Origin: a virus
Lineage: Duplodnaviria > Heunggongvirae > Uroviricota > Caudoviricetes
Reading direction: 5' to 3' (one strand)
Length of the DNA: 8,546 bases
IMG/VR virus record: IMGVR_UViG_2531839200_000005
The position numbers and the translations under genes are program-made. Positions 4,907 through 8,434 of this stretch are shown piece by piece. A model generated the notes under the pieces. That model made no database searches. It worked only from the letters and a program-made list of their open reading frames with translations, and was not told the origin of the DNA. The number at the start of each line of letters is the position of its first letter. The stretch's first letter is position 1.

Positions 4907-6206
4907 TCTCCCGCATATTGCCAGCATGGCTTTTAATGAGCCGCTGATGCTTGAACCCGCCTATGCGCGGGTTTTCTTTTGTGCGCTTGCAGGCCAGCTT
5001 GGGATCAGCCGCCTGACGGATGCAGTATCCGGCGACAGCCTGACTGCCGGAGAGGCACCCGCGGCGCTGGCGTTATCCGGTGATGATGACGGACCACGAC
5101 AGGCCCGGAGTTATCAGGTCATGAACGGCATCGCCGTGCTGCCGGTGTCCGGTACGCTGGTCAGCCGGACGCGGGCGCTGCAGCCGTATTCGGGGATGAC
5201 CGGTTACAACGGCATTATCGCCCGTCTGCAACAGGCTGCCAGCGACCCGATGGTGGACGGCATTCTGCTCGATATGGACACACCGGGCGGAATGGTGGCG
5301 GGAGCATTTGACTGTGCTGACATCATCGCCCGTGTGCGTGACATAAAACCGGTATGGGCGCTGGCCAACGACATGAACTGCAGTGCAGGTCAGCTGCTTG
5401 CCAGCGCCGCCTCCCGGCGTCTGGTCACGCAGACCGCCCGGACAGGCTCCATCGGCGTCATGATGGCTCACAGTAATTACGGTGCTGCCCTGGAGAAACA
5501 GGGCGTGGAAATCACGCTGATTTACAGCGGCAGCCATAAGGTGGATGGCAACCCCTACAGCCATCTACCGGGTGATGTCCGGGAAACACTGCAGTCCCGG
5601 ATGGATGCAACCCGCCGGATGTTTGCGCAGAAGGTGTCGGCATATACCGGCCTGTCCGTGCAGGCTGTGCTGGATACCGAGGCTGCAGTGTACAGCGGTC
5701 AGGAGGCCATTGATGCCGGACTGGCTGATGAACTTGTCAACAGCACCGATGCGATCACCGTTATGCGTGATGCACTGGATGCACGTAAATCCCGTCTCTC
5801 AGGAGGGCGAATGACCAAAGAGACTCAATCAACAACTGTTTCAGCCACTGCTTCGCAGGCTGACGTTACTGGCGTGGTGCCAGCGATGGAGGGCGAAAAC
5901 GCCAGCGCGGCGCAGCCGGACGTGAACGCGCAGATCACCGCTGCGGTTGCGGCAGAAAACAGCCGCATTATGGGGATCCTCAACTGTGAGGAGGCTCACG
6001 GACGCGAAGAACAGGCCCGCGTGCTGGCAGAAACCCCCGGTATGACCGTGGAAACGGCCCGCCGCATTCTGGCCGCAGCACCACAGAGTGCACAGGCGCG
6101 CAGTGATACTGCGCTGGATCGTCTGATGCAGGGGGCACCGGCACCGCTGGCTGCAGGTAACCCGGCATCTGATGCCGTTAACGATTTGCTGAACACACCA
6201 GTGTAA
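4887..6206 (+). CDS. C: Head maturation protease / scaffold fusion gpC (S49 ClpP/SppA-like serine protease N-terminal domain)
   Basis: GTG at 4887 lies just downstream of a GAGGAGGAG Shine-Dalgarno run (4875-4883) and gives MTAELRNLPHIASMAFNEPLMLEPAYARVFF..., 439 aa as in lambda C. The ORF-track start at 4752 is an in-frame upstream Met inside B and is probably not used. Overlaps the B 3' end by 20 nt. Confidence 0.9.
5601..6206 (+). CDS. nu3: Scaffolding protein gpNu3, translated from an in-frame internal start within C
   Basis: ATG at 5601 is 714 nt into the C frame, the same offset as lambda nu3 within C. It encodes MDATRRMFAQKVSAYTGLSVQ... (201 aa) and shares the C stop codon. Confidence 0.8.
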   Translation: MDATRRMFAQKVSAYTGLSVQAVLDTEAAVYSGQEAIDAGLADELVNSTDAITVMRDALDARKSRLSGGRMTKETQSTTVSATASQADVTGVVPAMEGENASAAQPDVNAQITAAVAAENSRIMGILNCEEAHGREEQARVLAETPGMTVETARRILAAAPQSAQARSDTALDRLMQGAPAPLAAGNPASDAVNDLLNTPV

Positions 6207-6210
6207 GGGA
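6205..6210 (+). promoter_or_regulatory. Shine-Dalgarno for D
   Basis: AAGGGA sits 5 nt upstream of ATG 6216. Confidence 0.5.
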
Positions 6211-6215
6211 TGTTT

Positions 6216-6548
6216 ATGACGAGCAAAGAAACCTTTACCCATTACCAGCCGCTGGGCAACAGTGACCCGGCTCATACCGCAACCGCGCCCGGCGGATTGA
6301 GTGCGAAAGCGTCTGCAATGACCCCGCTGATGCTGGACACCGCCACCCGTAAGCTGGTTGCGTGGGATGGCACCACCGACGGTGCTGCCGTTGGCATTCT
6401 TGCGGTTGCTGCTGACCAGACCAGCACCACGCTGACGTTCTACAAGTCCGGCACGTTCCGTTATGAGGATGTGCTCTGGCCGGAGGCTGCCAGCGACGAG
6501 ACGAAAAAACGGACCGTGTTTGCCGGAACGGCAATCAGCATCGTTTAA
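6216..6548 (+). CDS. D: Head decoration protein gpD
   Basis: 110-aa ORF from ATG 6216, [27 protein letters not shown]...AISIV. An AAGGGA Shine-Dalgarno at 6205-6210 favours ATG 6216 over the upstream in-frame ATG 6210. Confidence 0.93.
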
Positions 6549-6565
6549 CCTTACCCTTCATCACT

Positions 6566-6590
6566 AAAGGCCGCCTGTGCGGCTTTTTTT
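6566..6590 (+). terminator. Intrinsic-terminator-like hairpin with U-tract in the D-E intergenic region
   Basis: AAAGGCCGC-CTGT-GCGGCTTTTTTT: 5 G:C pairs extendable by A:U pairs, a 4-nt loop, then 7 T (6584-6590) and a second T7 run at 6597-6603 immediately before the E start codon. Confidence 0.5.
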
Positions 6591-6603: not shown

Positions 6604-7629
6604 ATGTCGATGTACACAACCGCCCAGCTGCTGGCGGCAAATGAGCAGAAATTTAAGTTTGATCCGCTGTTTCTGCGTCTCTTTTTCCGTGAGAGCTATC
6701 CCTTCACCACGGAGAAAGTCTATCTCTCACAAATTCCGGGACTGGTAAACATGGCGCTGTACGTTTCGCCGATTGTTTCCGGTGAGGTTATCCGTTCCCG
6801 TGGCGGCTCCACCTCTGAATTTACGCCGGGATATGTCAAGCCGAAGCATGAGGTGAATCCGCAGATGACCCTGCGTCGCCTGCCGGATGAAGATCCGCAG
6901 AATCTGGCGGACCCGGCTTACCGCCGCCGTCGCATCATCATGCAGAACATGCGTGACGAAGAGCTGGCCATTGCCCAGGTCGAAGAGATGCAGGCAGTTT
7001 CTGCCGTGCTTAAGGGCAAATACACCATGACCGGTGAAGCCTTTGATCCGGTTGAGGTGGATATGGGCCGCAGTGCGGCAAACAACATCACACAGTCCGG
7101 TGGCACGGAGTGGAGCAAGCGTGACAAGTCCACGTATGACCCGACCGACGATATCGAAGCCTACGCGCTGAACGCCAGCGGCGTGGTGAATATCATCGTG
7201 TTTGATCCGAAAGGCTGGGCGCTGTTCCGTTCCTTCAAAGCCGTCAGGGATAAGCTGGATACCCGTCGCGGCTCTCATTCCGAGCTGGAGACAGCGGTAA
7301 AAGACCTGGGCAAAGCGGTGTCTTATAAGGGAATGTATGGCGATGTGGCCATCGTCGTGTATTCCGGACAGTACGTGGAAAACGGCGTCAAAAAGAACTT
7401 CCTGCCGGACAACACGATGGTGCTGGGGAACACTCAGGCACGCGGTCTGCGTACCTATGGCTGTATTCAGGATGCGGACGCACAGCGCGAAGGCATTAAC
7501 GCCTCTGCCCGTTACCCGAAAAACTGGGTGACTACCGGCGATCCGGCGCGAGAGTTCACCATGATTCAGTCAGCACCGCTGATGCTGCTGGCTGACCCTG
7601 ATGAGTTCGTGTCTGTACAACTGGCGTAA
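6604..7629 (+). CDS. E: Major capsid protein gpE (HK97-fold)
   Basis: 341-aa ORF from ATG 6604, MSMYTTAQLLAANEQKFKFDPLFLRLFFRESYPFTTEKVYLSQIPGLVNMALYVSPIVSGE.... The ORF-track start at 6577 lies inside the upstream hairpin and is rejected. Confidence 0.95.
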   Translation: MSMYTTAQLLAANEQKFKFDPLFLRLFFRESYPFTTEKVYLSQIPGLVNMALYVSPIVSGEVIRSRGGSTSEFTPGYVKPKHEVNPQMTLRRLPDEDPQNLADPAYRRRRIIMQNMRDEELAIAQVEEMQAVSAVLKGKYTMTGEAFDPVEVDMGRSAANNITQSGGTEWSKRDKSTYDPTDDIEAYALNASGVVNIIVFDPKGWALFRSFKAVRDKLDTRRGSHSELETAVKDLGKAVSYKGMYGDVAIVVYSGQYVENGVKKNFLPDNTMVLGNTQARGLRTYGCIQDADAQREGINASARYPKNWVTTGDPAREFTMIQSAPLMLLADPDEFVSVQLA

Positions 7630-7631
7630 TC

Positions 7632-7649
7632 ATGGCCCTTCGGGGCCAT
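7632..7649 (+). other. Stem-loop with UUCG tetraloop in the E-FI intergenic region (possible attenuator or mRNA stability element)
   Basis: ATGGCCC-TTCG-GGGCCAT: perfect 7-bp stem, UUCG loop, starting 3 nt after the E stop codon and followed by the U-rich TGTTTCTCTGT. Confidence 0.4.
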
Positions 7650-7670
7650 TGTTTCTCTGTGGATGAGTCC

Positions 7671-8069
7671 ATGACGAAAGATGAACTGATTGCCCGTCTC
7701 CGCTCGCTGGGTGAACAACTGAACCGTGATGTCAGCCTGACGGGGACGAAAGAAGAACTGGCGCTCCGTGTGGCAGAGCTGGAAGAGGAGCTTGATGACA
7801 CGGATGAAACTGCCGGTCAGGACACCCCTCTCAGCCGGGAAAATGTGCTGACCGGACATGAAAATGAGGTGGGATCAGCGCAGCCGGATACCGTGATTCT
7901 GGATACGTCTGAACTGGTCACGGTCGTGGCACTGGTGAAGCTGCATACTGATGCACTTCACGTCACGCGGGATGAACCTGTGGCATTTGTGCTGCCGGGA
8001 ACGGCGTTTCGTGTCTCTGCCGGTGTGGCAGCCGAAATGACAGAGCGCGGCCTGGCCAGAATGCAATAA
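7671..8069 (+). CDS. FI: gpFI (DNA-packaging accessory / head assembly protein)
   Basis: 132-aa ORF from ATG 7671, MTKDELIARLRSLGEQLNRDVSLTGTKEELALRVAELEEELDDTDE.... The ORF-track start at 7632 would begin inside the E-FI hairpin. Size matches lambda FI. Confidence 0.9.
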   Translation: MTKDELIARLRSLGEQLNRDVSLTGTKEELALRVAELEEELDDTDETAGQDTPLSRENVLTGHENEVGSAQPDTVILDTSELVTVVALVKLHTDALHVTRDEPVAFVLPGTAFRVSAGVAAEMTERGLARMQ

Positions 8070-8080
8070 CGGGAGGCGCT

Positions 8081-8434
8081 GTGGCTGATTTCGATAACCT
8101 GTTCGATGCTGCCATTGCCCGCGCCGATGAAACGATACGCGGGTACATGGGAACGTCAGCCACCATGACATCCGGTGAGCAGTCCGGCGCAGTAATACGT
8201 GGTGTTTTTGATGACCCTGAAAATATCAGCTATGCCGGACAGGGCGTGCGCGTTGAAGGCTCCAGCCCGTCCCTGTTTGTCCGGACTGATGATGTGCGGC
8301 AACTGCGGCGTGGAGACACGCTGACCATCGGTGAGGAAAACTTCTGGATAGACCGGATTTCGCCGGATGATGGCGGAAGCTGTCATCTCTGGCTTGGGCG
8401 TGGCGTGCCGCCTGCCGTTAACCGTCGCCGCTGA
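8081..8434 (+). CDS. FII: Head-tail connector protein gpFII
   Basis: 117-aa ORF with GTG start at 8081, preceded by GGGAGG (8071-8076). MADFDNLFDAAIARADETIRGYMGTSATMTSGEQ... I recognise as lambda FII. Confidence 0.92.
   Translation: MADFDNLFDAAIARADETIRGYMGTSATMTSGEQSGAVIRGVFDDPENISYAGQGVRVEGSSPSLFVRTDDVRQLRRGDTLTIGEENFWIDRISPDDGGSCHLWLGRGVPPAVNRRR

Follow-up and report, generated by a model that had tools for sequence, protein, structure and literature searches.

Gene Layout of the Analyzed Locus

The analyzed stretch of DNA, herein referred to as the window, is 8546 nt long and corresponds to the left arm of a lambda-type phage. From just before cos onward, the window contains the genes Nu1, A, W, B, C/Nu3, D, E, FI, and FII, in this order. 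Window coordinates are equal to lambda coordinates plus 469, and in the region 7300-8100 the identity to phage 434 and lambda is 98.9%. The E-FI region of Stx1a-converting phages in GenBank is 97% identical to that of the window. The features considered here are as follows.

470-481: cohesive-end sequence GGGCGGCGACCT of cos
6210-6548: gene D (Pfam: PF02924, HDPD)
6566-6590, plus strand: hairpin of the D-E spacer, AAAGGCCGC-CUGU-GCGGCUUUU, with the 3′ arm GCGGC and a U7 run ending at 6590
6604-7629, plus strand: gene E, the upstream cistron, encoding the major capsid protein (Pfam: PF03864, Phage_cap_E; E = 3e-71)
7627-7629, plus strand: stop codon TAA of E, followed by TC
7632-7649, plus strand: C(UUCG)G hairpin of the E-FI spacer, with the 5′ arm AUGGCCC (7632-7638), the loop UUCG (7639-7642), and the 3′ arm GGGCCAU (7643-7649)
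7650-7660, plus strand: U-rich single-stranded tail TGTTTCTCTGT / UGUUUCUCUGU between the hairpin and the Shine-Dalgarno (SD) sequence of FI
7661-7673, plus strand: translation initiation region of FI, with the SD-like GGAUGAG (7661-7667) and AUG (7671-7673), placed by alignment with lambda
7671-8069, plus strand: gene FI, the downstream cistron, encoding a DNA packaging protein (Pfam: PF14000, Packaging_FI; E = 3e-58)

The product of E is named major capsid protein in the records for lambda and related phages. The cos sequence lies inside the window; thus, a joined cos is spanned, which points to a prophage or concatemer origin of this DNA. A perfect AT-rich palindrome, ATGATAATTATTATCAT (419-435), is located about 35 nt upstream of the cohesive-end sequence and overlaps the sole strong promoter-like match (406-435).

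The E-FI spacer differs from that of lambda at one position only, the G-to-T change at 7664, with which the SD of FI reads GGATGAG in the window versus GGAGGAG in lambda. Variants of this SD found among relatives include GGAGAAG and GGGGGAG, which suggests that the strength of FI initiation drifts. A small local hairpin, GUGGA-UGAG-UCCAU (7659-7673), can be drawn in the same initiation region, pairing part of the FI SD with the bases just 5′ of the AUG and into it. The (U/C)CCAUG context at the FI start is kept in relatives and could pair with GGAG in a similar way.

The first three bases of the E-FI hairpin form an ATG in frame with FI, and therefore mechanical ORF calling gives a FI product of 145 aa, extended by 13 codons (7632-8069). 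This ATG of the 5′ arm is not conserved, and GTG, CTG, or CCG were found in relatives. In the record of phage D2 (L157, 2548), the start of the FI coding sequence is annotated at an ATG within the loop of the equivalent hairpin, which is probably a mis-annotation. The hairpin ATG is thus an annotation trap for the calling of FI starts.

Sequence and Fold of the E-FI Hairpin

A perfect 7-bp stem with a UUCG loop and a U-rich tail had been described after the E stop codon in the original prediction, and all these elements can be read directly in the window. The hairpin begins 2 nt past the E stop codon and ends 21 nt ahead of the FI start. It is identical to lambda 7163-7180, and the hairpin together with the tail is identical to lambda 7163-7191. 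The stem has five GC pairs among its seven and carries a loop of 4 nt, as in intrinsic terminators, the stem-loops of which are GC-rich, about 5-14 bp long, and have loops of 3-8 nt. The loop is closed by a C-G pair and thus has the extra-stable C(UUCG)G form; UUCG loop, C-G closing pair, and complementary stem are all found in ...GGCC-C(UUCG)G-GGCC.... The isolated hairpin folds with -12.9 kcal/mol (z = -3.3; 0 of 200 shuffles as good) and is retained in both the MFE and the centroid structures of its 101-nt context. The U-rich tail (7650-7660) could be an imperfect terminator U tract or a single-stranded entry site for RNase E. A role as an RNase III site was rejected: the stem has 7 bp versus the approximately 20 bp or more of double-stranded RNA that are needed, and no longer helix was found in the 101-nt and 201-nt folds. 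A search with Rfam covariance models gave no match at or near 7632-7649, even at E ≤ 1.

The window sequence alone supports a hairpin beyond chance only weakly. Perfect hairpins of at least 7 bp occur 5 times in the window, compared with 3.8 ± 2.2 in dinucleotide shuffles, and 0.36 hairpins with at least five GC pairs and a tetraloop are expected per window. Among about 251 sliding folds of 34 nt and 30 nt, the hairpin ranks 43rd, and a 30-nt folding scan of the 60 nt past the E stop codon gave an empirical p of 0.185. A simple terminator scan of the window returned 13 matches, the hairpin included, with 8.1 ± 3.1 expected. Folding energy alone was dropped as evidence on account of this rank, this p-value, and hairpin counts like those of shuffles. 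Since the single-sequence statistics are unremarkable, the case for a selected element rests on conservation and covariation.

Conservation and Covariation in Close Relatives

Loci with relatives of E were collected from GTDB genomes, IMG/VR, and GenBank phages. The scan of IMG/VR with lambda E gave only loci with 99-100% identity; the diversity of the set came from contigs of GTDB genomes, from scans seeded with the N15 and Erwinia capsids, and from GenBank phages. Capsid stop codons were placed by tblastn, and the sequence downstream was extracted. Many of the matches with 98-100% identity to the lambda capsid (loci L003-L018, L020, L035-L055, L058-L063, and L067-L073) lie on short contigs of genome assemblies from unrelated organisms (for example, Chromatium, Neobacillus, Kitasatospora, Bradyrhizobium, Akkermansia, and Prevotella), and several of these contigs have a coverage near 1 in their names. 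Such matches are almost certainly lambda DNA contamination or spike-in and not prophages.

The pattern GGCCC-N3-4-GGGCC was found by pattern search in 281 of the 282 loci with a capsid identity of at least 74%. The sole exception, L033, has a variant 7-bp hairpin, UGGUCCC-GUCC-GGGGCCA. The 281 loci represent 102 distinct spacer sequences. Of the ten bases in the core stem, nine are the same in every one of these spacers; at the remaining base, a single C-to-U substitution was found, and pairing is retained there as G·U. The surroundings of the core are variable. At third positions of the last 30 codons of E, the minor-allele fraction averages 0.28 (3 of 30 invariant), and the spacer bases flanking the core have fractions of 0.37-0.40 (0 of 18 invariant).

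The two outer pairs of the stem covary, one between A-U, G·U, and G-C and the other between U-A and C-G. For these pairs, 19 cells are changed on both sides versus 1.6 in shuffles (0 of 500). The share of cells that pair is 94.9%, versus 30-57% with the partner slid. The loop varies according to the UNCG pattern: minor-allele fractions at positions 1-4 are 0.03, 0.46, 0.25, and 0.26, position 1 being almost fixed as U, position 2 being the most variable, and positions 3-4 being mostly CG. The loops of this type include UUCG, UGCG, and UCCG, as well as UACG in a relative with 69% capsid identity. Stems of 5 bp occur with UNCG loops only. The non-UNCG loops (UGUC, UGUU, AUUC, UUUC, and others) are found on stems with at least 6 pairs, nearly all of them with at least 7, and usually with a G-C outer pair. 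Fold energies across all variants range from -10.4 to -18 kcal/mol. These trade-offs between stem and loop, together with the energy range, suggest that the selected property is a thermodynamically stable RNA hairpin.

The hairpin always follows the E stop codon and precedes the next SD. The distance from the 3′ end of the core to the FI ATG is 19-24 nt in most relatives, and the distance from the hairpin to the E stop codon is bimodal, being 4 or 10-13 nt. Judging from these alignments, strong purifying selection maintains a stable fold at this site. A chance palindrome without function would be in line with the unremarkable single-sequence statistics, but such a reading is effectively refuted by the comparative data, namely the retention in 281 of 282 loci, the invariant core amid variable flanks, the covariation, and the recurrence of hairpins after capsid genes described below; we give it almost no credence.

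Hairpins After Capsid Genes in Distant Relatives

At greater distance, the architecture is kept while the sequence of the stem changes. In relatives with 71, 69, and 61% capsid identity, the hairpins GAGGC.GGGC-GCAA-GCCC.GCCUC-UUUUU, AGGGGC-UACG-GCCCCU, and CGGGGGC-GAAAU-GCCCCCG were found, respectively, the third in phage D2. A canonical terminator, GGGGCGC-UGAG-GCGCCCC-UUUUU, is present at 42% identity, and unrelated strong GC hairpins were found at 25-43%. The set at 25-35% includes chi-like and other Casjensviridae as well as phages of Rhodobacter, Ruegeria, and Rhizobium. Among the intergenic spacers of these clusters in distant relatives, that following the capsid gene is usually the longest.

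A hairpin unusually stable for its locus was found within 60 nt of the capsid stop codon in 15 of 19 lineages (each p < 0.1), and the Fisher combined p is 4e-15. A stable hairpin just 3′ of the major capsid gene is thus general to this capsid-gene family.

Terminator-Like Features of the Spacer

Across relatives, the spacer between the stem and the SD contains 66% T, versus 39% T in the equally pyrimidine-rich 5′ flank. In the window, the stem is followed by U-GUUUCUCU, or by UUGUUUCU if the terminal A-U pair is open, and the U run is interrupted; this tail passes a lax scan (at least 5 T in 8 nt). The number of T residues in the 8 nt 3′ of the stem ranges from 1 to 7 among relatives. At least 5 T were found in 48 of the 102 distinct spacers, and 23 spacers keep the hairpin with at most 3 T. 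The hairpin is kept with a poor U tract (GGGCC-CUGUUCC) in the second-commonest lineage, which comprises 38 loci. Strong U tracts were found in some relatives (U8 in L066 and U6-7 in L315 and L289), and the distant relatives L057 and L039 have canonical terminators, each a hairpin with U5, at the equivalent place. Most of the post-capsid hairpins of distant relatives are not followed by U runs.

The late operon is transcribed by Q-modified RNA polymerase (PMC12360218). Q narrows and extends the RNA exit channel, and Q-loaded polymerase resists pausing and termination (PMC12360218).

The D-E Hairpin and a Hairpin Inside Gene C

Gene E is bracketed by two hairpins, that of the D-E spacer on its 5′ side and that of the E-FI spacer on its 3′ side. 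The D-E hairpin has the canonical form of an intrinsic terminator and lies just upstream of the E ribosome-binding site. It was missed by the built-in scan because its stem runs into the T run. Almost every relative with a capsid identity of about 40% or more retains it as GCCGC-N4-GCGGC followed by T6-9, with a free loop, and the records of N15 and mEp237 list it as a terminator. The products of D and E are needed in roughly equal amounts; therefore, the D-E hairpin must be read through. Such read-through in turn suggests that terminator-shaped hairpins in this operon act otherwise than by attenuation, or besides it.

Another terminator-like hairpin, GAACCCGC-CUAUGC-GCGGGUUU followed by UCUUUUG, is located inside gene C (4953-4974, plus strand), about 48 nt past the B stop codon (4906), in the part encoding the conserved motif LEPAYARVFF. 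In relatives with at least 80% identity, the synonymous sites of its stem are essentially invariant, and flanking synonymous sites vary. One GAA-to-GAG change was found in the stem, with pairing kept, and a rare CGG codon for Arg is retained. This hairpin is lost in distant relatives. It resembles the protective structures embedded in coding sequences of E. coli operons (PMC5927463).

Proposed Role of the E-FI Hairpin

Two options had been offered for the hairpin in the original prediction, a determinant of E mRNA stability at the 3′ end and a leaky terminator. The anatomy of the spacer fits both, and the comparison of relatives shows the selected stable hairpin that both require. The resistance conferred by Q, the early start of the stem after the stop codon, and the lineages with poor U tracts tilt the balance towards the stability option. 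Thus, the best reading of the hairpin here is a protective 3′ stem-loop, through which E mRNA would persist longer than the message downstream; we assign somewhat less than an even chance to this reading.

According to this proposal, Q-modified polymerase would read through the hairpin and produce the long antiterminated late mRNA. RNase E would cut this polycistronic RNA in places less covered by ribosomes, either in the U-rich tail or in FI and beyond. The 3′-to-5′ exonucleases PNPase and RNase II would then degrade the RNA as far as the hairpin and be halted there. The message of E, which is heavily translated, would therefore outlive that of FI, FII, and the tail genes, as would D-E sequences upstream. 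The expected outcome would be more capsid protein relative to the products of the downstream genes, and any residual termination at the imperfect U tract would push in the same direction. The steps that involve RNases, half-lives, and expression ratios are inferred.

A barrier to decay would take the form of a stable conserved structure at the 3′ boundary of the more highly expressed cistron and outside its coding part. Such a hairpin, with bases either invariant or covarying, was found in all relatives past the stop codon of E and ahead of the ribosome-binding site of FI, and it recurs across E-type capsid genes. Stability looks like the selected trait, given the UNCG loops and the restriction of 5-bp stems to them. 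The retention of the hairpin where the U tract is poor, and the lack of U runs in most of the distant cases, would also fit a barrier, as would the resistance of Q-loaded polymerase to termination (PMC12360218). Protective intercistronic structures are conserved between species and are the established model for malEFG and many E. coli operons (PMC5927463). In papBA, hairpins delimit the mRNA of a major structural subunit at either end, the 3′ one being of the terminator type (PMC5927463), and the bracketing of E by two conserved hairpins would be analogous to that of papA mRNA. By the same analogy, the capsid protein may be made from a processed "capsid mRNA cassette," with E bracketed by two independently conserved hairpins within the 26-kb antiterminated late operon; papA-type segmental stabilization would then set the capsid excess of lambda-like phages together with translation initiation. 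This extended proposal is rather unlikely as it stands.

Several points speak against a decay barrier. An element acting purely as a block to exonucleases would not need the enrichment in U 3′ of the stem, which speaks for a contribution from termination. With only 2 nt between stop codon and stem in the lambda lineage, every terminating ribosome must melt the stem. Low-copy genes upstream would be stabilized as well, and the use of this is not obvious. A 7-bp stem is reportedly near the lower limit for stalling PNPase (Spickler and Mackie, in 2000), and Sampson et al., in 1988, are said to have attributed differences in late-protein yield to translation initiation and not to mRNA level. No measurement of mRNA level, 3′ ends, or half-life for lambda E versus FI was found in the searchable literature. 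A small RNA bound by Hfq and derived from the 3′ end of E was considered and rejected, as the lambda RIL-seq preprint (Silverman et al., 2024) reports none at E-FI. The RNAs in that preprint include LPR1 (tL2a region), LPR2, and 6S RNA, the latter two being neighbors in the late operon.

Alternative Explanations

The main rival to the protective stem-loop is a leaky intrinsic (Rho-independent) terminator, at which part of the polymerases would release at the U-rich tail, leaving less transcript for FI, FII, and the tail genes than for D and E. The GC-rich stem and tetraloop followed by UUGUUUCU, which passed the simple scan, are consistent with such a role, as are the T bias of the spacer (66% 3′ versus 39% 5′ of the stem), the U6-U8 tracts of L066, L315, and L289, the canonical U5 terminators of L057 and L039, the annotation of the N15 ortholog in GenBank as a putative rho-independent terminator, and the precedent of leaky terminators that balance expression in T7 and LUZ7 (PMC9163698). 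However, Q-modified polymerase resists hairpin-dependent termination (PMC12360218), the U tract is interrupted in the window, and 23 of the 102 spacers, including those of the abundant CUGUUCC lineage, keep the hairpin with at most 3 T in 8 nt. Moreover, in the lambda lineage, the stem starts 2 nt past the end of E, which is translated more heavily than any other late gene, and so a coupled ribosome would occlude the stem and hinder its formation behind the polymerase; and the far better terminator of the D-E spacer lies between genes needed equally and is evidently read through. Leaky termination is thus considered unlikely as the main function, although it is a rival of real weight. A narrower version, in which only polymerase that is not Q-modified would be stopped and spurious or read-in transcription from head to tail genes blocked (for example, in a lysogen), has been proposed for the equivalent element after the procapsid module of phages L and P22 (PMC8022706). 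The terminator-like asymmetry of the spacer is consistent with it, but lineages with weak U tracts keep the hairpin, no promoter-like site was found within E (the window has matches only at 406-435 on the plus strand and 5242-5214 on the minus strand), and the conservation of the post-capsid position across unrelated hairpins would be left unexplained; this version seems quite improbable.

The hairpin might instead act on translation, by blocking ribosome sliding and re-initiation at FI or by fixing the fold of the FI initiation region, so that FI would be uncoupled from ribosome flux on E. Such an insulator would be in line with the invariable place of the hairpin past the stop codon and ahead of the following SD, with a spacing to the FI ATG (mostly 19-24 nt) that varies no more than the bimodal spacing to the E stop codon, and with the conservation of a small but highly stable element; the U tract would not be needed. 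In silico, however, insulation of the FI ribosome-binding site in the window was unsupported: its predicted opening energy is 8.7 kcal/mol for the native sequence, 8.3 with the hairpin deleted, and 8.9-9.9 with shuffled arms. Also, the hairpin precedes unrelated downstream genes in distant phages, and we consider insulation distinctly unlikely. Separately, the pyrimidine-rich 5′ flank of N15-like phages (CUUCC...) seemed able to pair with the SD of FI, and a ribosome-mediated coupling based on such pairing was tested and rejected. Among 61 spacers, native flanks were no better than composition-matched shuffled ones (mean difference of -0.25 kcal/mol; native better in 15 of 61). A site recognized as DNA or by a protein, with GGCCC....GGGCC kept as sequence for binding or as a recombination boundary of the head-gene module, would account for the five inner pairs, none of which is replaced by another Watson-Crick pair where the capsid identity is at least 86%, a conservation beyond what the fold alone demands. 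Yet the outer pairs covary, the loop changes obey the UNCG rule, and relatives with 61-71% identity have different stem sequences in the same architecture. No Rfam match and no second copy were found in the window, where the hairpin contains the sole CTTCGG of the plus strand, and the divergence of both flanks next to an invariant core favors selection over a recent exchange. A DNA site is therefore rated as very improbable.

Similarity to Known Elements

The E-FI hairpin is an already known kind of element, of modest interest and without surprise for a specialist, given the canonical lambda sequence, the N15 annotation, the CUUCGG class, and the recognized terminators after capsid genes. The stem-loop after gene 8 of N15, encoding the major head protein, is annotated as a "putative rho-indep. 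transcription terminator" (AF064539, 7053-7073) and represents a positional ortholog. The capsid gene of N15 is 90% identical, and its spacer is of the same E-FI type, with the GGCCC/GGGCC core, a 7-bp stem, and then CUUUCUGGAG. The N15 hairpin differs in having the loop AUUC rather than UUCG, an outer pair G-C rather than A-U, and a location 9 nt further from the stop codon.

C(UUCG)G hairpins in intercistronic regions of phages were described by Tuerk et al. (1988), as cited in PMC8948821. In the account given there, the members of this class share with the E-FI hairpin the CUUCGG loop, the C-G closing pair, a short complementary stem, and a place in intergenic phage mRNA. As that account presents it, the class is defined by loop chemistry and not by function, and the roles listed vary, including a 5′ stabilizer of T4 gene 32, the 3′ end of MS2, and stops of reverse transcriptase (PMC8948821).

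The structures of malE-malF and papBA (Dar and Sorek, 2018, PMC5927463) are likewise stable, conserved, intercistronic, and located 3′ of a ribosome-dense gene with higher expression. Unlike the malE-malF structure, the E-FI hairpin is not a REP element, is much shorter, and belongs to an operon of a phage, read by antiterminated polymerase.

Terminators after capsid genes are found in other phages as well. T-phi of T7 sits after the capsid gene 10. In phages L and P22, a terminator-like hairpin lies just 3′ of the coat module within a single late transcription unit, and according to the authors of the phage L study the "roles are not known" for such terminators (PMC8022706). Partial termination and the blocking of transcripts that are not antiterminated are the roles discussed for the terminators of L/P22 and T7 (PMC8022706, PMC9163698). 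These cases differ from lambda in having unrelated capsid families and hairpin sequences, and T-phi acts on T7 RNA polymerase.

Biological Significance

The present analysis adds quantitative evidence for selection on the stability of the hairpin, its persistence without a good U tract, and the second hairpin upstream of E. As a compact insulator or stabilizer of 18 nt that has been tested by evolution, the element could serve in synthetic operons. If the hairpin is indeed a decay barrier with a partner in the D-E spacer, differential mRNA decay would set part of the stoichiometry of lambda late proteins, complementing the textbook view that translation initiation alone sets these ratios. It would also provide a role for the intra-operon "terminators" annotated after capsid genes (PMC8022706).
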